A DNA stretch of 64,000 nucleotides from an uncultured delta proteobacterium (GCA_963755715.1 CAVWLW010000063.1:38914-102913), one strand, 5' to 3'. Counted from the first letter of the stretch, positions 6,569-23,241 are shown. Numbers and translations are program-made. Notes: a model not told the origin generated them from the sequence alone.

Positions 6569-7544
6569 ATGAAACGGTTGGCGAAAACTCTGATCGTTGC
6601 TCTCGCGGTATTCAGTTGTGTCGTCGTCTCTCGCAGCTTTGCCGCGGAATCGAAGAAAATCGTCTTCGCCTATTCTTCCATCGGCTCCATGGCGACCGGA
6701 GTCTGGATGGCGAAGGATAGCGGGGCGTTCGACAAATACGGCATTCCCGCCGATATCATTTTTATTTCTTCCGGTCCGGTCGTGGTGCAGGCGCTGATCG
6801 GCGGCGACCTGCAGGGCGGCAGCGGCGCGAGCAATGCGGTGATCAACGCGGTTCTGAACGGCGCGCCGATCGTTGCCATCGGCGGCACGGCCAATCGTCC
6901 GTATCATCGGCTGTTCGTGCAGTCGGAGATCAACCGTATAGAGGACCTCAAGGGCAAAATCCTTGGGGTCACGCGGTTCGGCTCGATTACGGATAATCTG
7001 ACGCGCATTCTGCTGCGCAAGTACGGACTCGAGAATAGCGTCAACGTGCGCCAGATGGGCGGCACGCTTGAAGTCGCCGCGGCTTTCCAAAATCGCCAGA
7101 TCGCCGGCGCCGTTACCGGCGATCTACGCGTTACGCCACCGAGCCAACCGAAGATTCTCCTGCAGCTCGATCGATCTGGGCATTCCTTACTCGATGAACA
7201 TGCTCGCGGTTTCGCGCGAGATGTTGAAGCGCGATCCGGACACGGCCGAGAAAATCGTGCGCGCCTACTCGGAGGGCGTCGCATTCATGAACCAGAACAA
7301 AGAGCGCGCTCTAAAAATCATCGCGAAATATGCGCATATGACGGACCCCAAGCAGACGGAGGTTCATTATCGCGATTCGGTCACGTATTTAGACCGCATC
7401 CCCCGCGCCGAGCCGGAAGCGGTGCAAACGATTCTCGAGTTCATGGGCAAAAAGGGTGTCGCGCCGGAGACGTTTCAGGATAATTCGATCATCGATAAAC
7501 TCAACCGCGAGGGATTTTTCGACAAGCTTTATAAGAAATCGTAA
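6569..7544 (+). CDS. NMT1/THI5-like ABC substrate-binding protein (frameshift ~7170)
   Basis: Signal peptide, WMAKDSGAFDKYG, DLKGKILGVTRFGS; joins ORFs 6569 and 7068; paralog of 8569..9537. Confidence 0.85.
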
Positions 7545-7589: not shown

Positions 7590-8324
7590 ATGACAAGAAT
7601 CGTCACGCGCGGATTAAAAGAAGAGAAGGACGGCATTCAAGGTTTCATCGCCTACCCGGAGCGCGCCGAGAAAGGCCCCGGTCTTTTGCTCATTCATCAA
7701 CATTCGGGCCTGACGGGGTATTTGAAAACCGCTGCTTATAACTTCGCCCAGCTCGGTTATACGACGGTGGTTCCCAATCTCTATCACATGCTCGGCTATC
7801 CGGCCGAGACGCATATCGACAAGGGCACGGAGATTCAAAACAAAACGCCGGATCCGGATTTCGTTCGCGTGATCGATCGCGGCTGGCGCTATTGCCTGTC
7901 GCGGAATGACGTCGATGGCTCGCGCGTCGGCGTGGTTGGTTATTGCATGGGTGGGCGGCTGGGAATTCACTTCGTTGCCGCCACGCCCGCGGCGCGCGCA
8001 TTTGTCGCGTACTATCCCTCGGTGCGCGACGAACAACCGACGAAGATCCGCCCGCGCCATCCGTGCGACGCGGCGCGGGAAATCAAATGCCCTTCCATGA
8101 TCCTTTACGGCGGCCACGATCAGCACAGCACGTTTCCGGTGCAGCAGCGGGTGATGGAAAGCTTTCACTCGAATGGCCAGTCATTGGAGTGGCACTATTT
8201 TCATTTCGGTTATCATGGTTTCGCTTCCACCGAATCGGACGGCTACCAACCCTATCTCGCCGATCTCGTCTGGCCGTTGGTGACGGAGTTTTTGGGGCGC
8301 GAGTTGATTGGGCCGGCACTTTGA
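7590..8324 (+). CDS. Dienelactone hydrolase family protein
   Basis: GVVGYCMGG nucleophile elbow, YGGHD Asp, YHGF His. Confidence 0.9.
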   Translation: MTRIVTRGLKEEKDGIQGFIAYPERAEKGPGLLLIHQHSGLTGYLKTAAYNFAQLGYTTVVPNLYHMLGYPAETHIDKGTEIQNKTPDPDFVRVIDRGWRYCLSRNDVDGSRVGVVGYCMGGRLGIHFVAATPAARAFVAYYPSVRDEQPTKIRPRHPCDAAREIKCPSMILYGGHDQHSTFPVQQRVMESFHSNGQSLEWHYFHFGYHGFASTESDGYQPYLADLVWPLVTEFLGRELIGPAL

Positions 8325-8462
8325 ACTTCGGAGTTTTTTTCTTTGGCGAAATCTGAAGCGCCGTTGCCAAATGCTTGAGCATACCGTGACTCACTCATAG
8401 GCACTCGATCGCGTTGAGATTCGGAAACACACCTGAAGTCACGCTTTTTTTGCAAAAAACGG

Positions 8463-8477
8463 TGGCATGCGAGTTGC
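8463..8477 (+). promoter_or_regulatory. Putative sigma54 -24/-12 promoter
   Basis: TGGCATGCGAGTTGC (GG-N10-GC), ~90 bp upstream of 8569. Confidence 0.7.
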
Positions 8478-8568
8478 TCGATAAACAATCACCGTTTGTC
8501 GCCGCACGCCGGAGCCACCTTCGCTGCTGCGTTCAAAAATCAATTCAGCCCATTGGGAGTGTCACGAA

Positions 8569-9537
8569 ATGAAACAGTTCGTACGATCTTTGATCGTCTT
8601 TCTGCCGTTGATCTGCTTTACATCGGTCGGAGCAGCCGCCGAATTAAGAAAAGTCGTCTTCGGCTATTCAACCATCGGCGCCATGGCGGCGGGCGCCTGG
8701 ATGGCCAAAGAGATCGGCGCTTATGAAAAATACGGCATTGATACCGAGCTGATTTATATTTCCTCCGGACCGACCGTAGTACAAGCGCTGCTCGGCGGCG
8801 ACGTGACCGGTGGAATTGCCGCGACCAATGCCGTGATTGCCGCGGTGTTGCGCGGCGCGCCGTTGGTTTCTGTCATCAGCACAGCCAACCGTCCCTATCA
8901 CCGCTTCTGGGTGCGGCCGGAAATAGCCCGTATTGAAGATCTCAAGGGGAAAACCGTTGGCGTCACGCGCTTTGGTTCGGTGACCGATAACCTGACTCGA
9001 ATGGTGCTCAAAAAATATGGTTTGGAAAGCACGGTCAATGTGCGCCAGATGGGCGGGTCGGCGGAGGTCGGCGCGGCCTTTCAAAACAAACAGATCGCCG
9101 GCGCGGTCACTTCGAGTCTGCGCGTCGATGCCACCGTGCAGCCCAGGCTGCTGATGAAACTGGAAGATCTGGGATTTCAATATTCAATGGATGTGATCGC
9201 CTATTCGCGCGACGATATGAAGCGCGCGCCGCAGGTGGTCGAAGGCATGGTGCGCGCCTACACCGAAGGCGTGGCGGCGATTCATTCTCAAAAGGAAAAG
9301 GCTTATAAGGCGATCGCGAAATACGCGCGCCTTCGCGATCAAAAGAAGATCGATGAGATTTACCAAGATTCCATTCTCTATCTGGAGAAAACTCCACGGG
9401 TAGAGCCGGAGGCCATCAATTCGATTCTGGACTTCATGGGGAAAAAAGGCGTGCCAGTGGAAACCTTTGCCGACAATACGCTTGTCGACAAAATGGTGCA
9501 CGAGGGGTTCATCGATAAGCTCTATAAGAGGCCGTAG
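8569..9537 (+). CDS. NMT1/THI5-like ABC substrate-binding protein
   Basis: Signal peptide, WMAKEIGAYEKYG, DLKGKTVGVTRFGS. Confidence 0.9.
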   Translation: MKQFVRSLIVFLPLICFTSVGAAAELRKVVFGYSTIGAMAAGAWMAKEIGAYEKYGIDTELIYISSGPTVVQALLGGDVTGGIAATNAVIAAVLRGAPLVSVISTANRPYHRFWVRPEIARIEDLKGKTVGVTRFGSVTDNLTRMVLKKYGLESTVNVRQMGGSAEVGAAFQNKQIAGAVTSSLRVDATVQPRLLMKLEDLGFQYSMDVIAYSRDDMKRAPQVVEGMVRAYTEGVAAIHSQKEKAYKAIAKYARLRDQKKIDEIYQDSILYLEKTPRVEPEAINSILDFMGKKGVPVETFADNTLVDKMVHEGFIDKLYKRP

Positions 9538-9546
9538 GGAGAGACG

Positions 9547-10620
9547 ATGATTCGGTTACATGGTCGGAAGGCTTGTTTCTGCATCCTTGCCGTTATTTTT
9601 TATCTTGTTGTTCCTCTGACTGCCGCCGCCGCAGTCGAAGATATACTTGCCGAGCTCAATGCAAAATCACCGGAAGAGCGGCAGAAAGTAATTGTCGAGA
9701 ACGCAAAAAAAGAAGGCGAGGTAACCCTCTACACGGCGGTCAACATGCGCGACGCCCAAGAGCTGATCGCCGGTTTCAACAAGAGTTATCCCGGGATACG
9801 AGTAGCAGTTTCAAGCCTGGGCGGACCGGGCGTGCTCAACAAAGTCCTGACGGAGAACCGCGCCAACGCCTATCTCGCTGATGTCGTGGCGCTCAACGGG
9901 ATCAGCTCGGTGGAACTGATCGATAAAAAGATTGCGGCTCGATACAAAAGCCCCATGGTCGGTTTTCTGCGCAAGGGTTTCGTCGATGCGGAGGGCTACT
10001 GGCCCGGCCTCTACGCCATCGGCTACACGATTATTTACAATAACAAACGCGTCTCGCAAAAAGAGGCGCCTAAACGGTACGAAGACTTGCTCCAACCGCG
10101 CTGGAAAAATAATTTGGTCATGGACGCAGAGGACCACGATCTGCTCGCCGGCCTTATCGATCTTTGGGGCGAAGCCAAAGCGACTGGGTTTTTAAAGCAA
10201 ATCGCGCAAGACCAAAAGGTCACTTTCTCGCGCCAGTCGCACACATTTATGACCCAGTTGGTGGCCACCGGCGAGCACGACGTGATCGTCGACGGCTACG
10301 TTCATAATGCCGTGGCGTTGAAGGGAAAAAGTGCGCCCATCGATTACGTCATGACCAACCCAACCATCATCCGTCCGCCGACGACCATCGCCATCATGGC
10401 GCGGGCGCCCCATCCCTACGCCGCCGCTTTGCTCTTGGATTATCATTTGTCCAAACCGGTGAGTGAAATCATGGTGAACAGTCAGGGCCGCTGGGCGCCG
10501 CGCAAAGATGTGCCGTGGGCCGTAGAGCCTCCAGGCGAGTTGCATTCGATCAATATGCTCGAATGGGGGCGAAAATACCGTCAGTTGGTGGCGCTGTTCA
10601 ATAAGATGACGAGCCAGTGA
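9547..10620 (+). CDS. Fe3+/AfuA-like extracellular solute-binding protein
   Basis: Signal peptide, AKKEGEVTLY, PKRYEDLLQPRWK, APHPYAAALLLDY. Confidence 0.9.
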   Translation: MIRLHGRKACFCILAVIFYLVVPLTAAAAVEDILAELNAKSPEERQKVIVENAKKEGEVTLYTAVNMRDAQELIAGFNKSYPGIRVAVSSLGGPGVLNKVLTENRANAYLADVVALNGISSVELIDKKIAARYKSPMVGFLRKGFVDAEGYWPGLYAIGYTIIYNNKRVSQKEAPKRYEDLLQPRWKNNLVMDAEDHDLLAGLIDLWGEAKATGFLKQIAQDQKVTFSRQSHTFMTQLVATGEHDVIVDGYVHNAVALKGKSAPIDYVMTNPTIIRPPTTIAIMARAPHPYAAALLLDYHLSKPVSEIMVNSQGRWAPRKDVPWAVEPPGELHSINMLEWGRKYRQLVALFNKMTSQ

Positions 10621-10775
10621 TGATGCGGATATTCAAAACCTGCGGCGAGCTATAACCCATTCTCGCGAGTTGACATCGTTGGGCTCGCGCTTTTTTCCGC
10701 CGGTTGGCAGGAGACGGCAAATTCGATATATCAACGGCAGGGCGAGCGAATATTTTTGTTTCAGGAGACGCGGCG

Positions 10776-11490
10776 ATGCAAATTGCGGAATGGAGAAAGA
10801 CGATCGGTGAGATGGTGCGCGAGCATATGCGCTCGCCGGAGCTGGAGCATTATTTTTCGGTCAAGATGAACAAACCGCGGGCGCAGCTGATGATCACGCA
10901 GCTGGGACTTTACATTCGCCACCGGCGGGATTGTTGGGCGCTGGTGTCGGCCAATTGCCCGGTAATGGCGATCAAGCAAGCGATTTTGCAACACGAGTAC
11001 GGCGAAGTGATCAAAGATCAGTTTTCCGATTACGGTCATTTGCACTTGATTATTCGCCAGGCAGCGAAAACTGGGCTTGACCCCGCAAGAAGTGATCGGC
11101 ACCAAACCGATCGTCAGCACGACGGCGACGCTTTATGCTTGGGCCTGGCTCACGCACGCCAAGAGCTGGATCGAAGGGTTGTCCGCTCTGACGGTTACGG
11201 AGTGGACCAACGACGACCGGCTACTGAACGATATCGGCGGCGGCCATTCGAGCCGCATGGGCAAACGCTGGACAGAAGACATGGGAATTGCCTGGCGCGA
11301 CATGCCGAATTTCGTCGCGCATTCCCAGGCAGACGAAGAACACAGCGATATGTTTCTGCCATTTTTGGAGGAGTACGCGACGGGTGAAAAAGAAAAGATG
11401 GCGTTGGATGCCGTAAAGGAGTCCCTCGATCTTTTCGCGCTTTACCGTGAAGGTGTGGCGCGCGCAATGGAGAAAATTCCGTTGAACTGA
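10776..11490 (+). CDS. Heme-oxygenase-like (CADD/PqqC/TenA fold) iron-redox protein, copy 1 (frameshift ~11070)
   Basis: HRRDCW..ANCP, HEYGE..GH, TEW, AHSQADEEH; AGGAG upstream. Confidence 0.8.
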
Positions 11491-11499
11491 ACCCACAGT

Positions 11500-11583
11500 T
11501 GTCATTCCGAGGAGCGCAGCGACGAGGAATCTCGTCCGATGTCAAGAATTCGGTCGAGATCCTTCACTTCGTTCAGGATGACA
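11500..11583. repeat. Palindromic intergenic repeat (GTCATTCCGAG...GAATCTC / GAGATCCTTC...CAGGATGAC)
   Basis: Terminal inverted TGTCATTCCGA / TCAGGATGACA with internal hairpins, directly after a stop codon. Confidence 0.75.
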
Positions 11584-11662
11584 GCGCGGAAGAAGTCACG
11601 GTAAAAAAATGAGTAGTTGATCGGTCGTATTTTGTGATGACGTAAAAAATTAGGAGGCTAAC

Positions 11663-12001
11663 ATGGAAAAACCAAGAATCAGGCATATCGCAATCAACGT
11701 CGAAGATCTCGACAAGACCGCAGAGTACTACAAAAAAGTTTTCGGCATGGAAGAAAAACATCGGCGGCCTGGGGGAACTATTTATCTATCCGACGGCCAT
11801 CTCGATCTCGCGCTCATCCATACCGAGAAATATCCGTGGGGAATCCACCACTTTGGTTTCAAGGTCGATAGCGTCAAAGAAATCGAGAAAATTGCCGACA
11901 CGAAAGCCGAGGACAACACCTACGGAGCCATTGCGGAAAGTTGGATCAAAGACGCCGAAGGCAACCGCGTCGACGTGTCCGAGCACGGCTGGCCGATCTA
12001 G
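11663..12001 (+). CDS. VOC/glyoxalase family protein
   Basis: IRHIAINVEDL, GIHHFGFKV, KDAEGNRVDV; AGGAGG RBS. Confidence 0.9.
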   Translation: MEKPRIRHIAINVEDLDKTAEYYKKVFGMEEKHRRPGGTIYLSDGHLDLALIHTEKYPWGIHHFGFKVDSVKEIEKIADTKAEDNTYGAIAESWIKDAEGNRVDVSEHGWPI

Positions 12002-12130
12002 CAGCCCTGCTGAAAAAGACTCATATGCTTCGTTGCGCTCGATCGCCTCGCGTCAACGTACTGCCGATGTACGCCTCCGCTCGTCGATTTTTCGCGCGCC
12101 TCGCCTCTGAGATCTTTTTGAGCAGCCTGC
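12001..12130. mobile_element. MITE-like element with IS5/IS1182-style ends
   Basis: Left GCAGCCCTGCTGAAAAAGA and right TCTTTTTGAGCAGCCTGC are imperfect inverted repeats; left end overlaps CTAG containing the VOC stop. Confidence 0.6.
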
Positions 12131-12150
12131 AATCCAAGTTTTTCCGCACC

Positions 12151-13101
12151 CTAAGAGTCCGATTCCACGCCGCGTTAATTTTGTTCTTTCTGGTGCTGGT
12201 GCATGGGCTTGCAACGGCGCAGAGCCCGCCGAAGGTTAGCGTCGCTTATGCTGCCATTAGCCCCATATTCGCGGGGGTATGGATGGCGCAGGAGATCGGC
12301 GCCTTTGAAAAGCATGGGCTAAAATCGGAATTGGTCTACATAAGCTCCGGAAGCATCACCGTCCAGGCCATGGTCGGTGGCAATTTGGACATGAGCGTTG
12401 CCGCAAGCAACGCTGTGGTGAGCTCGATCTTGCGCGGAGCGCCGCTGGTGGCCGTCGGCAGTATCACCAACCGGCCCGCCATGAGTTTGTTCGTCCAATC
12501 GGAAATCTCCAGACCCGATCAGCTTCAAGGCAAAGCGCTCGCGATCACCCGGCACGGGTCATCGACACATTTTTTAACTCTCTTCGTCCTCGAAAAGCTC
12601 GGTCTGAAAGACAAGGTTAAGATTCAGCCCATGGGCGGCACGAGGGAAGTCGACGCGGCCGTCCGTACCGGCATGGTTGCGGGAGCCGTGCGCAGCATGA
12701 AGCCGGGTCCAAAGACGCACATGCTAGTCGACTTGCCGGATCTAGGAATTCCTTTCTCGATGGATCTCATCGCGGTGAAGCGGGATTTCTACAAGAACTC
12801 GCCGCGCACGGTAGAGGCGATGTTGAAAGCTTACATCGAAGGCGTCGCCGCGCTGAAAACCAGAAAAGAGCTAGCCTACAAAGTTCTGGGAAAATACCTG
12901 CTCGGCGCGAGTGATTCGCTGGACGAGGCCTACGAATACGCCATCAAATATCTCGATCGTCAAGCGAGGATAGATCCGGCGGTGATTCAAACGGTGCTCA
13001 ATTGGGAGAACAAAGGCGACACGCCGGTCAATGAGTTTTTCGACAATTCGGCTGTCGATCGGATTATCAAAGAGGGATTCGTCGAGCGGTTATACAAGTA
13101 G
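12151..13101 (+). CDS. NMT1/THI5-like ABC substrate-binding protein (start uncertain)
   Basis: Hydrophobic signal then AYAAISPIFAGVWMAQEIGAFEKHG; in-frame ATGs lie in the upstream element; paralog of 14774..15739. Confidence 0.85.
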   Translation, partial: LRVRFHAALILFFLVLVHGLATAQSPPKVSVAYAAISPIFAGVWMAQEIGAFEKHGLKSELVYISSGSITVQAMVGGNLDMSVAASNAVVSSILRGAPLVAVGSITNRPAMSLFVQSEISRPDQLQGKALAITRHGSSTHFLTLFVLEKLGLKDKVKIQPMGGTREVDAAVRTGMVAGAVRSMKPGPKTHMLVDLPDLGIPFSMDLIAVKRDFYKNSPRTVEAMLKAYIEGVAALKTRKELAYKVLGKYLLGASDSLDEAYEYAIKYLDRQARIDPAVIQTVLNWENKGDTPVNEFFDNSAVDRIIKEGFVERLYK

Positions 13102-13116
13102 CCGCTGGAGATCGTT

Positions 13117-13824
13117 ATGAAGCGAGCAGAGTGGAGAAAAGAGCTGGGAGAGCTGGTGCGTGACGCGATGCGCTCACCTGAGCTGGATCACTATTTCAAA
13201 GTGAAAATCACCAAGCCGGGCGCGCAGATCTTGATCACGCAGCTCGGTCTTTTTATTCATCACCGCCGTGACTGTTGGTCGCATGTGTCGGGCAACTGCC
13301 CGCATATGTCGGTGAAACAAAAAATTCTCCAGCATGAATACGGCGAAGTCATCAAGGACAATTACACCGAGCACGGCCACATGGAGCTGATCGTTCGGCA
13401 AGGCAAGGCGCTCGACCTGACTCCTGAGCAGGTGATGAATGTCGAGCCGCTGCCATCGACCATGGCCACGCTTTATGCCTGGGCTTGGATGACCCGCGAG
13501 AAGAGTTGGCTCGAAGGGCTCGCTTCTCTGACAATCACCGAGTGGGCCAACGATGACCGGTTGCTGCACGATGTCGGCGGCGGGCTGTCGAGCCGCATGG
13601 CCAAACGCTGGATGGACGATCTCGGCTTTGGCTGGGAGCAGATGCCGAACTTCAAAGTGCACAGCGAGGCAGACGAAGAGCACAGCGACATGTTTCTGGA
13701 GGATCTGGAAAAATTCGCCACGGGTGAGAAGGAGACGCAAGTCTACCAAGCAGCGAAGGAATCCATGGACCTGCTGAAAATATTTCGCGGCGGGATAGCG
13801 AAGGAAATGGAGAGATTCGGTTAG
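13117..13824 (+). CDS. Heme-oxygenase-like iron-redox protein, copy 2
   Basis: HRRDCW..GNCP, HEYGE..GH, TEW, VHSEADEEH; 235 aa intact. Confidence 0.85.
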   Translation: MKRAEWRKELGELVRDAMRSPELDHYFKVKITKPGAQILITQLGLFIHHRRDCWSHVSGNCPHMSVKQKILQHEYGEVIKDNYTEHGHMELIVRQGKALDLTPEQVMNVEPLPSTMATLYAWAWMTREKSWLEGLASLTITEWANDDRLLHDVGGGLSSRMAKRWMDDLGFGWEQMPNFKVHSEADEEHSDMFLEDLEKFATGEKETQVYQAAKESMDLLKIFRGGIAKEMERFG

Positions 13825-13869
13825 CGCGGTGATAAGGTGCCGCGTTTTCATCGGAGAAACCCCGCCAAA

Positions 13870-13949
13870 TTTGAAAAAGGGGGTAAGGGGGATTTGGCGC
13901 TGACGATGAAAAAGAAAATCCCCCTTCATCCCCCTTTTTCAAAGGGGGA
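13870..13949. repeat. CCCCCTTT/AAAGGGGG-type palindromic repeat
   Basis: TTTGAAAAAGGGGGTAAGGGGGATTT pairs with AAATCCCCCTTCATCCCCCTTTTTCAAA; related copy at 43898. Confidence 0.75.
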
Positions 13950-14037
13950 GTTTAGGAGCTCGAAGCTTTAGTTTTTGAGCCAGTAACAATGTCAAGCTGC
14001 TTCACCGGTGCATGAACATTAACTAGGAGTATTTAGG

Positions 14038-14744
14038 ATGAATGCGAACGAATGGTCCGCCGCTTTCGGCGAGTTGGCACGGCAAACAATGTCTTCGGCG
14101 GAACTGGAACGGTATTTTTCAATTCCAATTACTAAAGCCCGCGCGCAAATTATTCTGCAGCAACTTTCGCTTTACGTGCGCCACCGGCGCGATTGTTGGG
14201 CTTTTGTCTCGGGCAACTCGCCGGTCCTATCAGTGAAGCAAAAGATACTCGGCCACGAGTATGAAGAGGTGATTCGTGATCAACACTCGGAGCATGGCCA
14301 CTTGGATTTGATTTTTCGCCAAGGGAAATGCATCGGGCTCGGTGCCGACGACATCCTGAATACCAAGCCGATTCCCAGCACCACCGCGACGCTCTACTCT
14401 TGGGGCTGGATGTGCAAGAAAAAGAATTGGCTCGAAGGGCTGGCGGCGATGACGATGACCGAATGGAATCAGGACGATCGACTGCTGGGAGATTTGGGCG
14501 GTGGCCACGCCTTTCGCATGGGGCAGCGGTGGGTCGAGCACTGGGCATCACGTGGGACGATCTGCCGAATTGGAAAGCGCACCGCGAGGCCGACAAGGGC
14601 CATGTCGATATGTTTCTTCCCGTCTGGGAGGAATTCGGCAAAGGCGAAAACGAAAAAATGATCTTGCAGGCGGCGAAAGAGTCGGAAGAATTATACCGCG
14701 TCTATCAAGCAGGTCTTGCCGATGCCATGGAACGACTGGTTTGA
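14038..14744 (+). CDS. Heme-oxygenase-like iron-redox protein, copy 3 (frameshift ~14540)
   Basis: HRRDCW..GNSP, HEYEE..GH, TEW, AHREADKGH. Confidence 0.8.
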
Positions 14745-14773
14745 TCGATTGAAGACTTCCTGAGGTTTTACGG

Positions 14774-15739
14774 ATGCGGATTTTTCGACTCGCAATACTG
14801 CCTTTGATTCTTCTTGCTACAACTCAAACCGTTCGCTCCGCTGAAATTGCCAAAGAAAAAATCACGTTCGCTTACGCCTCCATCAGTCCGAGTATGTCGG
14901 CCGTCTGGATGGCGAAAGAGATTGGCGCGTTCGAAAGAAACGGGTTGAATGCCGAGCTGGTTTACATCAGCTCGGGCGCCACGACGATCCAGGCGTTGGT
15001 GGGCGGCAGCGTTCAAGCCGCGCTGGGCGCGAGCAACGCGGTGGTCGCTGCCACCCTCAAGGGCGCGCCGATCATCGCCGTCGGGGGCAACAGCAGCCGC
15101 CCCGGCATGCAGCTTTGGGTGCAGCCGGAGATTCAGCGCGCGGAACAATTACAGGGAAAGACGCTTGCCATCACCCGTTTTGGCTCGACGAGCGACTTCG
15201 TGACTCGGCTGATTCTGCGAAAACTGAATCTCGAAGGAAAGACGGAACTGCGCCAGTTCGGCGGCGTGGTGGAAGCCGATATGGGGTTTCGTGCGCGTCA
15301 GGCAGAAGGGCGAGTCTCATCTCAGGCGCCGGGGCCGAAGGCAAGAATGCTGGTGGACGCCGCGGAACTCGGCATTCCTTTTTCAATGAATCTGTTGGCC
15401 GTGAGCAACGATTATTTACAAAAATCGCCGAAGTCGGTGGACGCGATCGTCAGAGCTTATATCGAAGGAATCGCAGCGCTGAAGACGCGAAAAGCGCAAG
15501 CGCTCAAGTTGTTCGAGAAATACATGGGGCAGCGCGGCGGCAGCGCCGAGATGCACCATGATTTTGTCATGAGATATTTGGATTCTGTTCCGCGCATCGA
15601 TCCGGCGGCGGTGGATACGGTGCTCGAAATGGTCGGCGCCAAAGGCGCGCCCAAAGACAGGCTTTACGATAACACCATCATCGATCGGCTGATTCACGAA
15701 GGTTTCACCGACAAGCTTTACAAAGGAGCAAAGCCATGA
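14774..15739 (+). CDS. NMT1/THI5-like ABC substrate-binding protein
   Basis: Signal peptide, WMAKEIGAFERNG, LQGKTLAITRFGS. Confidence 0.9.
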   Translation: MRIFRLAILPLILLATTQTVRSAEIAKEKITFAYASISPSMSAVWMAKEIGAFERNGLNAELVYISSGATTIQALVGGSVQAALGASNAVVAATLKGAPIIAVGGNSSRPGMQLWVQPEIQRAEQLQGKTLAITRFGSTSDFVTRLILRKLNLEGKTELRQFGGVVEADMGFRARQAEGRVSSQAPGPKARMLVDAAELGIPFSMNLLAVSNDYLQKSPKSVDAIVRAYIEGIAALKTRKAQALKLFEKYMGQRGGSAEMHHDFVMRYLDSVPRIDPAAVDTVLEMVGAKGAPKDRLYDNTIIDRLIHEGFTDKLYKGAKP

Positions 15740-16446
15740 CGGAAAAACAGTGGCACGAGTGTCTAGGGGAATTGGTGCGCGACTATATTCGTTCGCCCGA
15801 GCTGGAATTTTATTTTTCGATCAAGATGAACAAGCCCCGGGCCGCCGTCATGGTGAAACAGCAGAGCTTGTTTGTGCGCCATCGGCGCGACTGCTGGGCA
15901 CATGTGTCGGCCAATTGCCCGGTGCTGGGCGTCAAGCAGCGCATCTTGGAGCATGAATACGAGGAAATTATCCGCGACGATTTTTCCGACTACGGCCATC
16001 TTCATCTCATTATTCGGCAAGGAAAATCAGTCGGTCTCGAGCCCGAGGAAATTATCCGTGCGGAACCTTTGCCGGAAACTCTTGCGACGCTTTATGCCTG
16101 GTCGTGGATGACCAGCGAGATGCCTTGGACCGAGTCGCTTGCCGGCATGACGATCACCGAATGGTGCAACGATGACCGGCTGCTCGGCGATTTAGGCGGC
16201 GGGCAGTCGACGCGCATGGCAAAAAAATGGATGGAGGACATGGGCTTTACCTGGAAAGAGATTCCCAACCTGCAGGCGCACAGCCAGGCGGACGAGAAGC
16301 ACAGCGATATGTTTTTGCCGTTTCTCGCCGAATACGCCACCGGCAATAAAGAAGCGCCGGCGATTCAAGCCGCGAAAGACTCTTTGGCGTTTAATGCGAT
16401 GTATCGCAAGGGTATCGCGCTGGCGCAGGAAAAGATTCCGCTGTGA
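15736..16446 (+). CDS. Heme-oxygenase-like iron-redox protein, copy 4
   Basis: HRRDCW..ANCP, HEYEE..GH, TEW, AHSQADEKH; ATGA overlap with the upstream SBP. Confidence 0.85.
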   Translation: MTEKQWHECLGELVRDYIRSPELEFYFSIKMNKPRAAVMVKQQSLFVRHRRDCWAHVSANCPVLGVKQRILEHEYEEIIRDDFSDYGHLHLIIRQGKSVGLEPEEIIRAEPLPETLATLYAWSWMTSEMPWTESLAGMTITEWCNDDRLLGDLGGGQSTRMAKKWMEDMGFTWKEIPNLQAHSQADEKHSDMFLPFLAEYATGNKEAPAIQAAKDSLAFNAMYRKGIALAQEKIPL

Positions 16447-17480
16447 TATCTTTTCAAAAGTTTCATTTTTCAAGAATAATTGCCGCGCTCTTTGTGTCGC
16501 TCGCACTGCTCGGAGCGTTGCCTTGCAGCGCTTTCGCCGCGGACGCGAAAATCATCGAAGCAGCCAAGAAGGAAGGCGAGCTCGCTTGGTGGAGCACCAT
16601 CGCCCAGGATCAGTCGCAGAAAATCGTCGACGAGTTCATGAAACTCTATCCGTTCATCAAAGCGAGCTATTGGCGCAGCGGCAGCGTAGGATTGCACAAC
16701 AAGATCTTGATCGAAGCTCGGGCAGGTCGTTCGAGTTGGGATGTGGTATCGCAGACCACGCCGGAATTTATTTTCGATCTTAAACAGAAAAAATTGATCG
16801 CGCCTTACAATTCTCCGGAGCGCGGCCAGTTCAGCGCGGATCTAAAAGATCGAGAGGGCTATTGGACGGGAACCTATGCGTTACCAACGGGCCTGGGCTT
16901 CAATACTCAACAGGTGAAGAAGGAAGACGCGCCCAAGAGTTACAAAGACCTGCTCGACGGCAAGTGGAAGGGCGGCAAGATTTCTATCGATGATGAAAAC
17001 TACGAGCTTTTGGTCGGCCTCGAGCAAGCGTGGGGGAAAAAGCCCGCCGTAGAATATTTGAAAGCTTTAGCGGCGCAAGCGCCGACGATAGGGCGAGGAG
17101 CGACTCAACGAACCCAGCTCTTGGCGGTCGGTGAATTTCCGCTGGCGATTTCCTATACGCACACGGTCGAGTGGTCTAAGTCTCAAGGCACCTCGGTCGA
17201 TTGGGTCAACTTGGAGCCGGTGGTGATCAAGTTTGACGGCATCATGCTCGGCGCCAAGGCGGCGCATCCGAACGCCGCGAAACTATTTATCGACTTTGTC
17301 CTGTCGCAAGCCGGGCAGGAACTATTACAGAGTTTTAGCCGGGTCACGCTCCGCAACGGCGTGGAGCCCAATCCGCCGCGATTGATAAAAGGGTTCAAAC
17401 GCGTTGTCCTTCATCCGGAAAAAGCCCAGGATGCCCAAGAGAGCCTGAAGCTTTATCGGGAAATATTTGGTCTGCCATGA
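16443..17480 (+). CDS. Fe3+/AfuA-like extracellular solute-binding protein
   Basis: Signal peptide, AAKKEGELAWW, PKSYKDLLDGKWKG, AAHPNAAKLFIDF. Confidence 0.9.
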   Translation: MISFQKFHFSRIIAALFVSLALLGALPCSAFAADAKIIEAAKKEGELAWWSTIAQDQSQKIVDEFMKLYPFIKASYWRSGSVGLHNKILIEARAGRSSWDVVSQTTPEFIFDLKQKKLIAPYNSPERGQFSADLKDREGYWTGTYALPTGLGFNTQQVKKEDAPKSYKDLLDGKWKGGKISIDDENYELLVGLEQAWGKKPAVEYLKALAAQAPTIGRGATQRTQLLAVGEFPLAISYTHTVEWSKSQGTSVDWVNLEPVVIKFDGIMLGAKAAHPNAAKLFIDFVLSQAGQELLQSFSRVTLRNGVEPNPPRLIKGFKRVVLHPEKAQDAQESLKLYREIFGLP

Positions 17481-18442
17481 GCGCGCTGCGCACTTATCTA
17501 ATTGCGCTGGTCATCAGCCTATGGGTTTCCGGGGCCGGCTTGGTCCGCGCCGAAAAAATCATCTTTGCCTATCCAAGTCCTTCGACGAGTTTTTTGCCTT
17601 TGGTCGTGGCGCAAAAGAAGGGTTTCTTCGATCCGGAAAACCTGCAACCGGAATTGGTGCAGATTCGCCCCGCGGTCGCCATTCCCGGCCTAACCCTTGG
17701 CAGCGTCGATTACACCACGGTGCTCGGCAGCACGATCGCGGCGCGCATGCGTGGCGTGCCCCTCGTCATCACCGGCGTGTTCGCCGACAAGCCGATGGAC
17801 TTTTTGGTCGGAGCGAAAGGAATCGCGTCACCAAAAGATCTCAAGGGCAAAATTATCGGGATCAGCGCTTTGGGCACCGCCACACACTTCTTGACGGTAA
17901 GAGTTCTTAAAGCGGTCGGCCTCGACCCGGAAAAAGATGTGACCCTGCGCGCGGTGGGCGACGAGGGACTACGCTTGCAAGCGCTGAGCACGGGGTTGGT
18001 GCAGGCTTCACTATTAGGCTCGCAAGGCGTGATCGAAGGTGAAAAAGCCGGCCTTAAAGTGATCGTCGCAGCAGCGGACGTGATTGAGAGTCTTCCTTTC
18101 GCCGGCGTCACAACCACTCTGGCCAAACTCAAAGAAAATCCCCAGCAGATCAAAAGAGTCTTGCGCGCGGGACTGCGCGGCCTTCGGTATGTTCAAGATA
18201 ATAAAGCCGGAACGGTCGACGTGATTCAGAGCTGGTATCGAGTCGAACGCGAAATCGCCGCGTCGACCTACGATCTGGCCCGCAAGTCTTTTAGTGCGAA
18301 CGGAGAGGTAAACGAGAAAGGGATCTTGCTCAGCATGGAATTTGCGCGCACGAGCGGGAAGTTTGAGAAAGAAATTTCTCCCTTGGAAATCATTGATTTC
18401 AACCTGTTGCGCGAGGTGAAAAAGGAGCTCGGGTGGCGCTGA
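17477..18442 (+). CDS. NMT1/THI5-like ABC substrate-binding protein
   Basis: Signal peptide, YPSPSTSFLPLVVAQKKGFF; paralog of 2073..3058. Confidence 0.9.
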   Translation: MSALRTYLIALVISLWVSGAGLVRAEKIIFAYPSPSTSFLPLVVAQKKGFFDPENLQPELVQIRPAVAIPGLTLGSVDYTTVLGSTIAARMRGVPLVITGVFADKPMDFLVGAKGIASPKDLKGKIIGISALGTATHFLTVRVLKAVGLDPEKDVTLRAVGDEGLRLQALSTGLVQASLLGSQGVIEGEKAGLKVIVAAADVIESLPFAGVTTTLAKLKENPQQIKRVLRAGLRGLRYVQDNKAGTVDVIQSWYRVEREIAASTYDLARKSFSANGEVNEKGILLSMEFARTSGKFEKEISPLEIIDFNLLREVKKELGWR

Positions 18443-18526
18443 CCGTGCTTTTGCAGAAGCGCGAAGATGAAGGTATGGTGGACACACTGATAATTTTTTT
18501 GAAAGAGCAACAAAGGGGAGGTCACT

Positions 18527-19225
18527 ATGAGTCTCTGGCCAAAAGTGCGCGAAGAACTGAACACGATTGTGAACCGTCATTTTGAAACGCCGGAGTACCG
18601 GCAGTTGTTTGCGGTGAAACTGACTCCCGCGCGGCAAGCGATCTGGGATGTGCATTATCCGCACTACATCAAGAGCCGGCGCGATTGCTGGGGCGCGGCA
18701 GCGGTGAAGGCGCCGCTCGATGTGAAGCGCGCGATCTGGGAGCACGAGAAAGACGAGTTGATTTATGACGCACGGATGGGATCGGCGCACTTGACCGACC
18801 AGCAGATGGCCGAAGCCGCCGCGGAAGCGAATTTACTTCCCGGCGTGCGCGCGGCGCTCATGGCTTGGATGTATTTGTCGACGACGAGCCCGTGGATCGA
18901 AGCCTTGACGGTCAATCACATTACCGAGCGCAAGAACAACCCGGCGATCGTCAAAGGCGGCGGTTTCACGGCGCGCTTTGCGCACAAGCGAGTCGCCGAT
19001 CAGGGCGGCACGATCGAGGGTCTCGACATCAACACCAAAGTTCACATGGTGGCGGATGAAGATCATTCCGACATGTTCGAGCCGATCTACGATCGCCACA
19101 TTACCGATGAGCGGACAGCGCAGGCAGTGATTCGCTCGGCGCTCGACAGTCTCGCCGTCGATCGCGCTTATCGCAGTGCGTTAGCCACCGCGATGGCTCA
19201 GATCGAGGAATCGGCGGCGGCGTGA
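18527..19225 (+). CDS. Heme-oxygenase-like iron-redox protein, divergent copy 5
   Basis: SRRDCWG, WEHEKDE...SAH, ITER, VHMVADEDH; GGAGG RBS. Confidence 0.75.
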   Translation: MSLWPKVREELNTIVNRHFETPEYRQLFAVKLTPARQAIWDVHYPHYIKSRRDCWGAAAVKAPLDVKRAIWEHEKDELIYDARMGSAHLTDQQMAEAAAEANLLPGVRAALMAWMYLSTTSPWIEALTVNHITERKNNPAIVKGGGFTARFAHKRVADQGGTIEGLDINTKVHMVADEDHSDMFEPIYDRHITDERTAQAVIRSALDSLAVDRAYRSALATAMAQIEESAAA

Positions 19226-19314
19226 AGGATCAGTTTCGAGTTTCAAGAACCACAAGAAACTGAATGGAGGCCGGGCGACGGTTGCCTCTGATGTCATCCA
19301 CGATGGGAACGATC

Positions 19315-19352
19315 GAGAAGGGGGTGCCGCTTGCTTGGGCACCCCCTCTTTT
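19315..19352 (+). terminator. Putative intrinsic terminator
   Basis: GGGGGTGCC-loop-GGCACCCCC hairpin followed by TCTTTT. Confidence 0.6.
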
Positions 19353-19443
19353 GTCTTCAAGATGAAATCGCCCGGGGCGTAACGGCAACCAGGCGGCGCG
19401 CGCTGGTCATCTTGTGCGGCGTTAACAATTTTCAGAAATCGCT

Positions 19444-20586
19444 ATGGAAATAAAATTCGGTCTGATCAGTTCCGATTCGCACGGCCAGCTTGGCAAGGAC
19501 GCCTATACAAGCCGCATGTCCGAGCAAAAGTGGGGAGAAAAAATCCCGCACTTGGTCGAGGTTCGGGAAGACAAGTTTCCTTTTCCCGTCGAGCGCTGGA
19601 TGGTCAACGGCGAGATTCAAGGCGGCAACGTTTGTAATTGTCCGACGGCGATGAAACAGCGGAGCTACTATCCACAGCGCTGGGAGGAAGTTCCTCTCGA
19701 AGTCTACGATCCCGCGCGTCGCCTCGAAGCGCTGGACAGAGACCGGGTCGATGGCGAAGTTTTGTTTCCCAACGGACCGGGTGGCACTTTCTTCTACGGC
19801 GACCCGGAGTTCGAGCTTGACTGCGTCAGGGCCTATAACGACGCGCTCGCCGAATTTCGCCGGGTGAGCGACCGCTTCATTCCGCTTGCCGCGGTGCCTT
19901 ACATGAGTTCCATCGAAACGATCGTCGGCGAGGTGGAGCGCGCCGTTCAAACCGGCCACATGGGCATCAACATGTTGGCGGATCCGAGCGTCGCGGTGCA
20001 AGGTCTCAAAAATCTCAGCGATCCTTTTTGGCATCCGCTGTGGAATATTTGCCAGGAGCTTGGCGTCGGCGTCCATTTACATGCGTCTGCCGGGCTCGCT
20101 GGAAAGTTGTCATTGCCCCAATGGAAAGGCTACACGCGGCGACAGTCGCATTGCGTCTCGACGCTGCGCAATTTCTGCACGGCTACGCAGTTCGTGCCGT
20201 ATTTGATTTTTTCCGGCATGCTCGACAAATTTCCTCGGCTCAACTGGGTCTTTGCTGAAACGGGGCTAGGCTGGGTGAGCTCGGTTCTGGAGGCTTGCGA
20301 TTGCGAATGGGAAAAGCGCCACCTTTGGACCGAAGGGATTCTTACTCGGCCCAGCGAGCTGTTTCGGCGCCAGATCTACGTCGATTTCTGGTTCGAAACG
20401 GTCGGCATCCAACTGCGTGATTGCATCGGCGTCGACAATATTCTTTGGGAATCCGACTTTCCGCACATCACTTCCACATATCCGAACTCCTGGAACGCCG
20501 TCGAGCATTCGCTGGCAGGTGTTTCAGCCGCCGATCGCGAAAAAGTGTTGTTTCGCAACGCCGCGCGGTTGTATCGATTGACGTAG
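19444..20586 (+). CDS. Amidohydrolase_2 family protein
   Basis: ISSDSH, DRVDGEVLFP, AYND, HLH, FAETG, ILWESDFPH, NAARLY. Confidence 0.9.
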   Translation: MEIKFGLISSDSHGQLGKDAYTSRMSEQKWGEKIPHLVEVREDKFPFPVERWMVNGEIQGGNVCNCPTAMKQRSYYPQRWEEVPLEVYDPARRLEALDRDRVDGEVLFPNGPGGTFFYGDPEFELDCVRAYNDALAEFRRVSDRFIPLAAVPYMSSIETIVGEVERAVQTGHMGINMLADPSVAVQGLKNLSDPFWHPLWNICQELGVGVHLHASAGLAGKLSLPQWKGYTRRQSHCVSTLRNFCTATQFVPYLIFSGMLDKFPRLNWVFAETGLGWVSSVLEACDCEWEKRHLWTEGILTRPSELFRRQIYVDFWFETVGIQLRDCIGVDNILWESDFPHITSTYPNSWNAVEHSLAGVSAADREKVLFRNAARLYRLT

Positions 20587-20613
20587 CTAGTCTACCAACG
20601 GCAAAAGTTAAAC

Positions 20614-21745
20614 ATGGAATTTAAACACGGTCTGATCAGCGCGGACGATCATGTGCAGGAACATCCTGAGGTTTGGACTGCGCGCCTGTCGCGGGAAAAA
20701 TGGCGCGACAGGATTCCCCACGTGGCGCGCATGGCCGATGGCAGCGACGCTTGGATCGTCGACGGTCAACGCCTGTCCTTGCCTGGCGTCGCGATAGCCG
20801 GCGCGGCTATGGCAGATCGCGGCCAGGAGGTGAGGTGCTGGGACGATGTGCCGCCGATGGTATTTAGCGCGCGCGAACGATTGAAAGCGATGGACGTGGA
20901 CGGCGTCGACTGCGCGATACTGTATCCCAGCGTAAGCGGTTTGGCGGCGGAAACTTTCGGCAAGCTCGACGATTCGGATTTGGAGCTCGCTTGCGTGCAG
21001 GCTTACAACGATTGGTTGATCGACGAGTGGGCCGACGTCAGCCCGCGGTTCGTGCCGCAATGCATCGTGCCGATCTGGCCGATGGAGCGGACGGTGGCGG
21101 AGATCGAGCGCGCCGTTGCCAAGGGTCATAAGGGTGTCATCTATCCGGCGTCGCCGATGGAGCTTCGCGCCGTGCCGCATATCAACGAGCCGGCTTACGA
21201 TCCGCTCTGGGCCACTTGCCAAGAGCTCGGCGTGCCGCTTTGCTTCCACGCGGGCGGGTCGCCCAAGATTCAGATGCGGCCGGGCGATGCATTCTCACCG
21301 GCGGTGGCCGCGGCATTCAGCGGTGTGGTGCGCTCGGTGAGCTCGATTGCGGTGGTGGCGAATTTTCTGCTTTCGCGCATCCTCGACCGCTTTCCCAAGC
21401 TGAAAATCGTGTTCGCCGAAAGTTCGCTCGGCTGGGGCGCCTACGAAATCGAGTATGCGGACTATCAGTCGGAGGCCGACGGTTTGCCGTCGGAAGGCTA
21501 TACTTCGAAGCCGTCGGAACTGTTCCAGCGCCAATGTTATTTTACTTGCTGGTACGATCACATGAGTCTTCGGGTGCGGCGCTATCTCGGCAGCGCAAAT
21601 ATTTTGTGGTCGAGCCATTTTCCGCTGGCGACCTCGAGTTGGCCCAATACCAAGCAGCGCGACTGAGCGGAGTTTTGCCGAGGTGCCGGATCAGGAGAAG
21701 CGGCAAATTCAATGGGAAAACGCCGCGAAGCTGTATTCGCTTTGA
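20614..21745 (+). CDS. Amidohydrolase_2 family protein (frameshift ~21660)
   Basis: ISADDH, DGVDCAILYP, AYND, CFH, FAES, ILWSSHFP; ENAAKLYSL in a shifted frame. Confidence 0.85.
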
Positions 21746-21777
21746 GCAAATCGAATCAACGAGCAGGAGGTAAAAAC

Positions 21778-22131
21778 ATGAGACCTAAAGTTCGACATGT
21801 GGCCGTGATGACGAAAAATCGCGAGAAGATGGTGGAGTTCTATCAGAAAATATTCGGCCTGGAGCCGAAACGCGGATTCGGCGGGGCGATTTATATGTCC
21901 GACGGCGACGTCAACATCGCGCTCATCGAAGCCAAACGCGACGACCAAAAAGAGGGCATCAACCATTTCGGCTTCGAGGTCGACGATCTCGACGACATCA
22001 AGCGACGATTGAAGGAAGCAGGATTTAACGCCGAGATCGATTCGAAGTCGGATAAAGACTCGGACCATCGAATCCAGGATCCCGATGGCCATTGGGTCGA
22101 TATGGCGGTCGATCGCCGCTGGCCGAAATAA
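21778..22131 (+). CDS. VOC/glyoxalase family protein
   Basis: VRHVAVM, GINHFGFEV, QDPDGHWVD; AGGAGG RBS; paralog of 11663. Confidence 0.9.
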   Translation: MRPKVRHVAVMTKNREKMVEFYQKIFGLEPKRGFGGAIYMSDGDVNIALIEAKRDDQKEGINHFGFEVDDLDDIKRRLKEAGFNAEIDSKSDKDSDHRIQDPDGHWVDMAVDRRWPK

Positions 22132-22174
22132 ATTTCAATTAAAAGTAAGTGCAAGCGATTACGAGGAAGGTTCG

Positions 22175-23194: not shown

Positions 23195-23241
23195 GCGGCG
23201 CCAGTCATCGAAGGCGCGCCGCGCATTCACGGCAGGAATCT

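Follow-up and report, generated by a model that had tools for sequence, protein, structure and literature searches.

Genes at the locus and their integrity

The window analysed, a stretch of 64,000 nucleotides, comes from an uncultured soil bacterium of the Binatia, and all features described below are on its plus strand. ORF lists and translations revealed five homologous genes at 10776-19225, each coding for a heme-oxygenase-like domain oxidase (HDO) of about 235 aa and interleaved with genes for solute-binding proteins (SBPs). HDO1 (10776-11490), HDO2 (13117-13824; intact, 235 aa), HDO3 (14038-14744) and HDO4 (15736-16446; intact, 236 aa) are of type A; HDO5 (18527-19225; intact, 232 aa) is of type B and is 34% identical to HDO4. 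RRDCW, HE..E followed by a His, TE(W/R) and H..AD..H were found in the translations of all five. A reading made earlier from the sequence alone (the sequence-only reading) had listed five proteins of this size, and the homology and the motifs were as it described; in the window neither HDO1 nor HDO3 is a single ORF.

HDO1 lies in two frames, split near 11066 by a surplus base at 11066/11067, and HDO3 is split near 14541, behind which a base is missing; both defects are seen in this assembly only. In three soil DNA runs (3/3, from three studies, at full depth) all contigs lacked the base at 11066/11067 and carried an extra T behind 14541. Since neither indel is present in these runs, the breaks are errors of assembly or changes peculiar to this one assembly, and all five HDO genes are intact in nature. 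Intact orthologs of 225-250 aa were also present in other MAGs (HDO1, n=20; HDO3, n=25). Many further genes of the window are split (GGT, UbiD, CHAT, hsdR and several SBP genes).

The proposed coupling of the genes in 14774-18442 was confirmed as 4-base overlaps at 15736 (ATGA), 16443 (GTGA) and 17477 (ATGA). In comparison with a locus that is 93-94% identical in DNA, dN/dS was 0.019 for HDO4, 0.019 for HDO5 and 0.048 for the SBP gene at 14774. These genes are thus under purifying selection and are not chance finds.

Fold, metal ligands and family membership

In an HMM search, as the sequence-only reading had suggested, HDO2 and HDO4 exceeded the Pfam cut-offs of PF14518 (28.9 bits; scores of 44.3 and 50.4 bits, respectively) and PF03070 (22 bits; 36.4 and 23.8 bits). 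Of HDO1 and HDO3 only the separate fragments went into the scan; the leading fragment of HDO3 matched PF03070 alone, and that of HDO1, like the intact HDO5, gave no Pfam match. AF2 models of HDO4 (pLDDT 97.1, pTM 0.92) and HDO5 (pLDDT 93.9, pTM 0.90), compared by Foldseek, have the seven-helix heme-oxygenase-like fold. The HDO4 model matched 4lqx (rank 1), CtCADD and PqqC (TMq 0.81), and the HDO5 model matched CtCADD, PqqC and 4lqx. Over the two models CtCADD gave TM values of 0.75-0.83, BesC, HrmI, FlcD, UndA and PolF were also matched, and TenA structures ranked below CADD and PqqC. A family profile matched 4lqx (8e-31), NePabS (8e-24) and CtCADD (1.5e-15). The best match by profile and by Foldseek is therefore SSO2700 of Sulfolobus solfataricus (PDB 4LQX), a TENA/THI-4 domain protein that differs from the array HDOs in being archaeal, 322 aa long and extended by an N-terminal part; as it has no assigned function, no function can be transferred from it.

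HDOs are defined by three His and three carboxylate primary ligands on core helices (PMC13108848). The corresponding residues of the array proteins are E77, H88, E142, H182, D186 and H189 (HDO4 numbering), with which E81, H88, E142, H174, D178 and H181 of CADD align in a profile alignment. Among 32 diverse sequences E77, H88, E142, D186 and H189 were invariant and H182 was at least 90% conserved; within each orthogroup all six were 100% conserved (HDO1, n=22; HDO2, n=17; HDO3, n=28; HDO4, n=37; HDO5, n=34). The proteins are probably two-metal, O2-using enzymes.

The closest characterised relatives are the HDO-type p-aminobenzoate synthases CtCADD (CT610; PDB 1RCW, 8VA9) and NePabS (9PJ4), which share the seven-helix fold, the six aligned ligands and a similar length with the array HDOs at 13-14% identity. 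By analogy, the array proteins could be self-sacrificing, single-turnover synthases that make p-aminobenzoate or another metabolite from their own side chains, the number of copies compensating for the single turnover. In favour of such a role, no PabB match in the genome exceeded the curated cut-off (one hit, 297.9 against 328.4 bits; the genome is 93.6% complete). We nevertheless consider it quite improbable. On the CADD-type model TIGR04305 HDO2 reached 38 bits, over its C-terminal 50 residues only, against a cut-off of 200; HDO4 and HDO5 gave no match, and other HO-fold genes of the genome scored higher (90 bits). The sacrificial residues of CADD are Tyr27 and Lys152 (PMC13108848); the profile sequence alignment places them opposite L23 and M161 of HDO4, and they are not conserved, position 161 being M or F across the groups. 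HDO1-4 retain a Tyr at position 26 that HDO5 does not, and no Tyr or Lys is invariant in the family alignment. Unlike the two synthases, moreover, the array HDOs form multi-paralog arrays with binding proteins and do not stand beside folate genes, and their operon partners, among them exported binding proteins, oxygenases and the GGT homolog, indicate that the substrate comes from outside.

Many members of the family are labelled PqqC by JGI, and the match to PF03070 together with the fold similarity to PqqC (PDB 1OTW and others) would suit PqqC- or TenA-like enzymes that use no metal and are active in cofactor biosynthesis or pyrimidine salvage on a precursor brought in by an NMT1-type SBP. 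In ThiY/TenA thiamine salvage the precursor is delivered by an NMT1-type binding protein, and an NMT1/THI5-like SBP beside a TENA/THI-4 fold echoes that arrangement. The catalytic site of TenA, as thiaminase II, consists of Cys, Asp and Glu. The invariant three-His/three-carboxylate set would be needless in a metal-free enzyme, the PF03070 match is weaker than that to PF14518 and spans only about 80-105 residues, and the PqqC model TIGR02111 gave 16.1 bits against a cut-off of 240, with no match above cut-off in the whole genome. Among the 57 ORFs of the window that were scanned, no pqq, folate or thiamine genes were found, which bears out the sequence-only reading as to pqq and folate. PqqC is described as metal-independent (PMC13108848), and an enzyme of this kind is very unlikely here.

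Fold, ligand set and scores below the CADD and PqqC cut-offs all agree, and together they support the assignment of HDO1-5 to an uncharacterised HDO subfamily. The RRDCW motif, which had been offered as the signature of that subfamily, marks only part of the clade.

Binding proteins

Four SBPs form one array subfamily of the NMT1 type (PF09084). They are encoded at 6569-7483 (frame-broken in this assembly, the translation degenerating after about 190 aa; nearest paralog 8569), 8569-9537 (81.2 bits), 11941-13101 and 14774-15739, whose stop overlaps the HDO4 start (ATGA). For the 11941 gene a true start near 12220 is likely, since a dispersed repeat occupies 12002-12140. Within a set of about 418 NMT1 loci these four proteins are mutual nearest paralogs, and a fifth member of the subfamily adjoins a type-A HDO on contig C18. 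The NMT1-type SBP at 17477-18442, joined to the preceding gene by the second ATGA, belongs to a different subfamily, with its nearest paralog at 2103-2753. Three SBPs are of other types: SBP_bac_6/8/1 at 9547-10620 (Pfam), and SBP_bac_6 at 16443-17480, joined to HDO4 by the GTGA overlap, and at 22085-23194 (Pfam and synteny). The genes at 16443 and 17477 are variable inserts, and that at 9547 has no counterpart at its position in those related loci where SBP 8569 adjoins HDO1. Inspection by eye showed hydrophobic N-terminal leaders in SBPs 8569, 14774, 16443 and 17477.

Compared with SBP-dependent ABC import systems of the NitT/TauT-like or Fe3+/AEP-like kind, the window has no cognate permease or ATPase gene; none of the 113 BPD_transp_1 matches lies inside it, and the nearest ones on the contig are upstream of the window. 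Scores on the models of such binding proteins also fall far short of the cut-offs (SBP 8569, 85 bits for SsuA_fam against 163.5; SBP 9547, 74 bits for phnS2 against 392.75).

SBP genes make up about 7% of the genome, so some SBP-HDO adjacency is background. Only one of the nine other HDO paralogs of the genome has an SBP gene at a distance of 200 nt or less (random segments, 4.7%), and in a sister family's array no SBP genes are interleaved between the HDO genes. SBP linkage is therefore not a clade-wide property of HDOs.

Neighbouring genes

Upstream of the array, a two-subunit TPP-dependent enzyme is encoded at 5423-5917 (alpha, 87% identical to the L048 ortholog with which tblastn detected it) and 5914-6543 (beta, PF02775); both subunits also lie upstream in related loci (beta, n=5; alpha, n=4). 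The dienelactone-hydrolase-family protein at 7590-8324 (PF01738, 112.9 bits) is a conserved upstream neighbour, its orthologs holding the same position in related loci at 85-94% identity. A VOC (glyoxalase/dioxygenase-fold) protein of 112 aa is encoded at 11663-12001 (PF00903, 44.3 bits) and has orthologs of 67-98% identity in 33 of 51 loci, among them loci of the sister families f87 and f86; it is an order-wide conserved partner of HDOs. A second VOC-fold protein, of 139 aa, is encoded at 21712-22131 (PF00903, 56.5 bits), with orthologs in nine related loci (76-95% identity).

Two PF04909 proteins are encoded at 19444-20586 and 20614-21666. Their best PDB matches were PtmU3 (3.8e-33) and DitZ (1.2e-32), decarboxylases following at about 1e-8, and by sequence the pair most resembles the amidohydrolase-related dinuclear oxygenases PtmU3, DitZ, AibH2 and SfbO (PMC10811679). 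The ORFs scanned in the window include no Rieske partner for the pair. Where VOC, amidohydrolase and decarboxylase neighbours had been proposed, the VOC proteins are present, and the supposed amidohydrolases are nearest to dinuclear oxygenases, not to hydrolases or decarboxylases.

The gamma-glutamyltranspeptidase (GGT) homolog at 23041-24817 is read as two ORFs in this assembly (PF01019, 324 and 179 bits) and has no evident leader. It is intact and HDO-flanked in all four sister-family loci (4/4) and is likewise an order-wide conserved partner. The 112-aa VOC protein and the GGT homolog are the oldest HDO partners. Other HDO paralogs of the genome are set among cupin (4/9), PF04909, VOC, SDR, 3-HAO, UbiD and MR/MLE genes, surroundings of a catabolic character.

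Synteny and distribution in the Binatia

Neighbourhood conservation was examined in 46 related loci from Binatia, selected on their similarity to HDO4, and the gene order of the array is conserved among them. Upstream of HDO2, SBP 11941 was present in 11 of 14 loci. HDO3 came after HDO2 in 15 of 19 and was itself followed by SBP 14774 in 26 of 29. The ortholog of SBP 14774 stands before HDO4 in 36 of 41 loci, and all 35 loci examined for the 4-base overlap (ATGA/GTGA) have it at the HDO4 start. HDO5 directly follows HDO4 in 24 of 36 loci, SBP 16443 lies between them in 8 of 36, and the NMT1 gene at 17477 is rare at its position. The SBP-plus-oxidase modules of the sequence-only reading thus hold for SBP 14774 with HDO4 and for the dedicated NMT1 subfamily; they are not general, given the single case among nine other paralogs, the sister array without SBPs and the variable genes at 16443 and 17477.

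All 61 of the 61 genomes examined from the order (G205 and G235 unpublished) carry the HDO clade, with 3-27 matches per genome; of 200 genomes from elsewhere in the phylum, 4 carry it. The tree shows one type-A copy in sister families and four in the host's family; the clade is much multiplied in this lineage, a lineage-specific expansion. The older core is a small VOC protein, an HDO and a GGT homolog, without binding proteins, and only in the host's bacterial family does one HDO type occur fourfold beside one dedicated NMT1-type SBP subfamily.

The conserved order of the five genes and the adjacency of HDO2 with HDO3 and of HDO4 with HDO5 would also be expected if the paralogs were not independent enzymes but parts of a single hetero-oligomeric oxidase, in which type A might pair with type B, or HDO2 with HDO3; in sister family f87 clades B, A and C are united in one operon, A and C being a few bases apart. 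This arrangement is unlikely. Some genomes lack HDO2, or HDO2 and HDO3, and retain the rest, every paralog has a full ligand set of its own, and HDO2 and HDO3 are parted here by repeat elements and spacers of about 200 nt. A heteromeric HDO is also absent from the available part of PMC13108848. That source describes more than one HDO in a single gene cluster for FlcD and FlcE of fluopsin C biosynthesis, two paralogs acting in sequence in one pathway. FlcD, one of the fold matches, is longer (about 350 aa) and mononuclear, and its cluster is biosynthetic; the array differs in having five paralogs and exported binding proteins and no biosynthetic scaffold genes.

Proposed role

The whole is best explained, with a probability of roughly 55%, as an uptake-and-oxidation island made of di-metal HDO paralogs and dedicated SBPs. 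Each HDO would bind two metal ions (Fe2 or Mn/Fe), activate O2 and oxidise a small molecule. An ancestral core of a small VOC protein, a type-B HDO, a GGT homolog and a type-A HDO would have been built upon later, the type-A gene being multiplied to four copies (HDO1-4) in the host's bacterial family, with each copy or pair placed behind a periplasmic binding protein of the one dedicated NMT1 subfamily. These binding proteins may hand over a set of related compounds to ABC translocators that they share and whose genes lie elsewhere. The first oxidative step would fall to the matching HDO paralogs, and the products would go on to the VOC proteins, the GGT homolog and the PtmU3/DitZ-like dinuclear oxygenases for processing. 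It speaks against one substrate per paralog that only three alignment columns cleanly separate HDO1-4, which lends different substrates little support.

The characterised HDOs are all biosynthetic in the account available from PMC13108848, so a catabolic role would, on that account, be without precedent. We put forward only tentatively, as a possibility on the doubtful side, that these are the first HDOs for nutrient catabolism, each SBP-HDO pair capturing and oxidatively opening a different member of one compound class. In view of the conserved GGT and VOC partners, gamma-glutamyl or amino-acid-derived compounds would be candidates for that class.

New here are the array order in 46 Binatia loci, the distribution of the clade, the core of VOC protein, HDO and GGT homolog, the family-specific expansion of type-A HDOs with NMT1-type SBPs, and the resemblance of the neighbouring 'amidohydrolases' to the dinuclear oxygenases PtmU3 and DitZ. 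If the tentative reading as HDOs for nutrient catabolism is correct, genomes of one order of the Binatia would each have acquired a tool-kit of 10-27 HDO genes, and in one of its families tandem-duplicated type-A HDOs would have become coupled to a co-diversifying subfamily of periplasmic SBPs.

Integrity of the five HDO genes

ORF lists and translations confirmed five homologous genes between positions 10776 and 19225 of the + strand, each about 235 codons long and encoding a heme-oxygenase-like domain oxidase (HDO): HDO1 (10776-11490), HDO2 (13117-13824), HDO3 (14038-14744), HDO4 (15736-16446) and HDO5 (18527-19225). As the sequence-only reading had described, RRDCW, HE..E followed by a His, TE(W/R) and H..AD..H are common to all five, and stop/start overlaps are present at 15736 (ATGA), 16443 (GTGA) and 17477 (ATGA). 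In the assembly the reading frame changes near 11066 in HDO1 and near 14541 in HDO3. Both breaks were checked over 10700-14800 with Logan contigs from three soil DNA runs belonging to three studies; in each run every covering contig had, at full depth, one base fewer at 11066/11067 and an extra T behind 14541. Other metagenome-assembled genomes (MAGs) carry intact orthologs of HDO1 and HDO3. Since the independent contigs and these orthologs are free of breaks, the breaks were read as indel errors; HDO1 and HDO3 are broken in this assembly only, all five genes are intact, and the three soil runs rule out pseudogenes.

Split genes were also seen across the window. They include those of the gamma-glutamyltranspeptidase homolog (GGT, 23041-24817), of UbiD, of several binding proteins and of a CHAT protein, and that of a type I restriction R subunit, which is broken into three (further examples at 25678-27276, 41820-43818, 56453-60040, 6569-7483 and 1824-2732). 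The many split genes and the absence of the two checked breaks from independent contigs mark the assembly as indel-prone.

Against a related locus of 93-94% DNA identity, dN/dS was 0.019 for HDO4, 0.019 for HDO5 and 0.048 for the solute-binding protein (SBP) gene starting at 14774; in more distant pairs synonymous sites were saturated. In one public RNA run (X15) short contigs reach only 10 of 30 bins, a weak hint, not proof, that the array is transcribed. Promoter and terminator sites over 8300-22200 were no commoner than in shuffled sequence (7 versus 7.1; 24 versus 18.2), so operon borders were not drawn.

Near-identical strains are widespread in soils: at least half of the words sampled from 10700-14800 occur in each of 14 soil or rhizosphere metagenome DNA runs, which come from nine studies. 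Short dispersed repeats occupy array spacers at 11530-11590, 12002-12140 and 13905-13965, with about 10, 20 and 11 genome copies and raised depth in the soil runs. On one contig of run X5, 13811-14033 is replaced by 40 other bases, so this spacer element varies between strains.

Family assignment

Pfam assigns HDO2 and HDO4 to PF14518 (iron-containing redox enzyme); both also match PF03070, less strongly and only in part, and HDO5 had no Pfam match. A phmmer search of 1.84 billion cluster representatives returned only 261 at E <= 0.001, and a word-indexed search 621 clusters at 90% identity. The matches are named 'iron-containing redox enzyme family protein' (NCBI) or PqqC (JGI), and those in the ESM Atlas are only clusters that are unnamed or called 'iron-containing redox enzyme'. 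Among 32 diverse aligned members P62, E77, H88, W131, E142, D186 and H189 were invariant, and D81, P113 and H182 nearly so. RRDCW, proposed as the signature of the subfamily, holds for the five window genes; across the wider clade other members have FPRW in its place.

The best matches of the family profile among PDB sequences were SSO2700/4LQX (8e-31), the p-aminobenzoate synthases NePabS/9PJ4 (8e-24) and CtCADD (1.5e-15), followed by PqqC (2e-11) and BesC (2e-8). In the profile alignment six conserved residues fall on E81, H88, E142, H174, D178 and H181 of CADD. AlphaFold2 models of HDO4 (pLDDT 97.1, pTM 0.92) and HDO5 (pLDDT 93.9, pTM 0.90) were matched by Foldseek to SSO2700, to CtCADD (TM 0.75-0.83), and to PqqC (0.81), BesC, TenA, HamA, HrmI, FlcD and UndA. 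A 2026 review defines an HDO by the fold together with a 3-His/3-carboxylate set (PMC13108848). By its predicted fold and its aligned 3-His/3-carboxylate residues, the clade of HDO1 to HDO5 is an HDO clade.

Two characterised relatives were rejected as identities: CADD (TIGR04305, 38 bits against a cut-off of 200) and PqqC (TIGR02111, 16 bits against 240). A self-sacrificing synthase that merely resembles CADD might be thought to suit this genome, which has no PabB match over the cut-off (one chorismate-enzyme match reaches 297.9 bits against 328.4); it is an improbable reading all the same, given the TIGR04305 score and a sequence alignment in which the sacrificial Tyr27 and Lys152 of CADD fall on L23 and M161. 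Still less credible is a metal-free enzyme of the PqqC/TenA type, which shares the fold: besides the low TIGR02111 score, Pfam found no pqq or thiamine genes among the 57 window ORFs scanned. Folate genes were likewise lacking there, as had been noted for pqq and folate from the sequence.

We favour instead, at a probability of roughly 0.55, a reading in which the five members of this uncharacterised HDO clade act independently of one another as cytoplasmic dimetal enzymes that activate O2, within an uptake-and-oxidation island; metal binding, chemistry and substrates are what we infer here. That the five proteins are subunits of a hetero-oligomer is unlikely in our judgement. Only three specificity-determining columns (positions 144, 157 and 217) were found among HDO1 to HDO4, a number that makes no case for distinct pockets.

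The heme-oxygenase fold superfamily is expanded in this genome beyond the RRDCW clade, since the CADD model gives 26 matches under its cut-off and the PqqC model seven (for example contig C45:61021-61662, C10:11848-12444 and C33:173426-174070).

Conservation of the array

All 61 genomes examined in the order, the unpublished G205 and G235 among them, carry the HDO clade at 3-27 matches per genome, an order-wide expansion; of 200 genomes sampled elsewhere in the phylum, only four do. Three old clades, A, B and C, were resolved in the HDO tree. Type A is single-copy in sister families and fourfold, as HDO1 to HDO4, in the family of the window; HDO5 is of type B, and type C is absent from the window array. 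In a sister family, the homologous cluster of four complete genomes runs VOC (112 aa), type-B HDO, GGT, type-A HDO, type-C HDO, VOC, with no binding protein between the genes; the VOC, HDO and GGT genes are taken for the older core of the array. At one locus of a third family a type-A HDO is followed by the same small VOC. In the window this 112-aa VOC protein is encoded at 11663-12001; orthologs of 67-98% identity occur in 33 of 51 loci, the remainder being mostly truncated contigs. Its PDB sequence matches were weak and generic (catechol dioxygenase N-domain, 1e-6).

Scanning one genome per species gave 46 loci, and almost all of them come from MAGs whose titles read Binatia or 'Deltaproteobacteria'; as they were chosen by similarity to HDO4, independent evidence comes only from the neighbours. 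By best-hit mapping and a tree, the HDO genes in these loci fall into five orthogroups in the constant order 1-2-3-4-5, with the six ligands 100% conserved in each (n = 22, 17, 28, 37 and 34 for HDO1 to HDO5). The SBP gene at 11941 is followed by HDO2 in 11/14 loci, HDO2 by HDO3 in 15/19, HDO3 by SBP 14774 in 26/29 and SBP 14774 by HDO4 in 36/41; between HDO4 and HDO5 there is no gene in 24/36 and the SBP_bac_6-type gene at 16443 in 8/36. After HDO5 come a pair of PF04909 genes (10 loci), GGT (eight) or something else or nothing (10). Of the 46 loci, 35 have a full HDO4 ortholog; in every one of them its start overlaps a TGA (ATGA/GTGA), and in 27 the frame ending there has at least 250 codons. 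Two related loci (L048:6503-7039, and L038) have a gene for a ferritin-like protein (PF00210) within the array, where it separates the small VOC from HDO1.

Solute-binding proteins

The genes interleaved with the HDOs encode exported-looking SBPs of two kinds by Pfam, NMT1/THI5-like (starting at 6569, 8569, 11941, 14774 and 17477) and SBP_bac_6/8/1 (9547, 16443 and 22085). All scored far under the curated cut-offs of sulfonate, taurine and aminoethylphosphonate binding-protein models. PDB sequence matches of SBP 14774 were weak and generic (best a putative exported protein, 9e-5; taurine SBP, 0.003), so that no ligand can be inferred for it or, on like grounds, for the small VOC.

Such genes are abundant in this genome, with about 418 NMT1-type loci (5.3% of the DNA) and 160 of SBP_bac_6 type (2.1%), together 7.4%; ABC permease-domain hits number 113, of which none is in the window. 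An SBP gene lies within 200 nt of 5/5 window HDOs, against 1/9 other HDO paralogs of the genome and 4.7% of random segments. The link is therefore a property of the window array and not of the clade, and the proposed SBP plus oxidase modules stand for the array only. SBPs 6569, 8569, 11941 and 14774 are mutual nearest paralogs genome-wide, and their subfamily has two further members in the genome, one adjoining a type-A HDO on contig C18; the NMT1-type protein at 17477 is of a different subfamily, and the gene at 16443 is a variable insert. Pure chance as the source of the adjacency was ruled out by the neighbour counts, the subfamily kinship and the 35/35 overlap at HDO4. In the favoured reading the type-A HDO copies are paired with one dedicated binding-protein subfamily, an SBP-HDO duplication specific to the family of the window.

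Neighbouring genes

The PF04909 pair after HDO5 (19444-21666) had been taken for amidohydrolases. The best PDB matches are PtmU3 (3.8e-33) and DitZ (1.2e-32), with decarboxylases at about 1e-8, so the pair is closest to these dinuclear oxygenases and not to decarboxylases; amidohydrolase-related dinuclear oxygenases are treated in PMC10811679. About 112 PF04909 loci were counted in the genome. The nine other HDO paralogs of the genome adjoin cupin genes of about 370 aa (4/9), PF04909, VOC, SDR, 3-hydroxyanthranilate dioxygenase, UbiD and MR/MLE genes.

Elsewhere in the window, a 175-aa ORF after GGT (24963-25490) is weakly similar to IS200/Y1 transposases (E 0.0035, under the cut-off). A radical SAM/SPASM protein with a SEC-C motif at its end is encoded at 30199-31557 (-), and a protein with that motif at its start at 61062-62420 (+). 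A glycine/sarcosine/betaine reductase component B homolog (36293-37600; PF09338, 291 bits) adjoins NMT1-type binding proteins. A TPP-dependent enzyme split into alpha and beta parts occurs twice (937-1986 and 5423-6543), in a layout that we take to resemble sulfopyruvate/phosphonopyruvate decarboxylase.

Significance

According to the review, about a dozen of more than 10,000 predicted HDOs have been characterised, all of them biosynthetic (PMC13108848). In the literature on the HDO superfamily, CADD/NePabS, PF14518 and Binatota/Binatia we found no paper on this clade, which the SznF network (PMC7848743) may already contain as an unnamed cluster; neither heme-oxygenase-like proteins nor binding proteins are discussed in the Binatota genome paper. 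The clade is under strong purifying selection and is linked to binding proteins, GGT and other, putative dinuclear oxygenases. With its many copies per genome it would broaden the known roles of the superfamily, and the interest lies chiefly in a catabolic, multi-copy use of HDOs, which would be new. In practice the substrates could be approached through the binding proteins encoded alongside, and the array would hint at the diet of abundant, uncultured soil Binatia.
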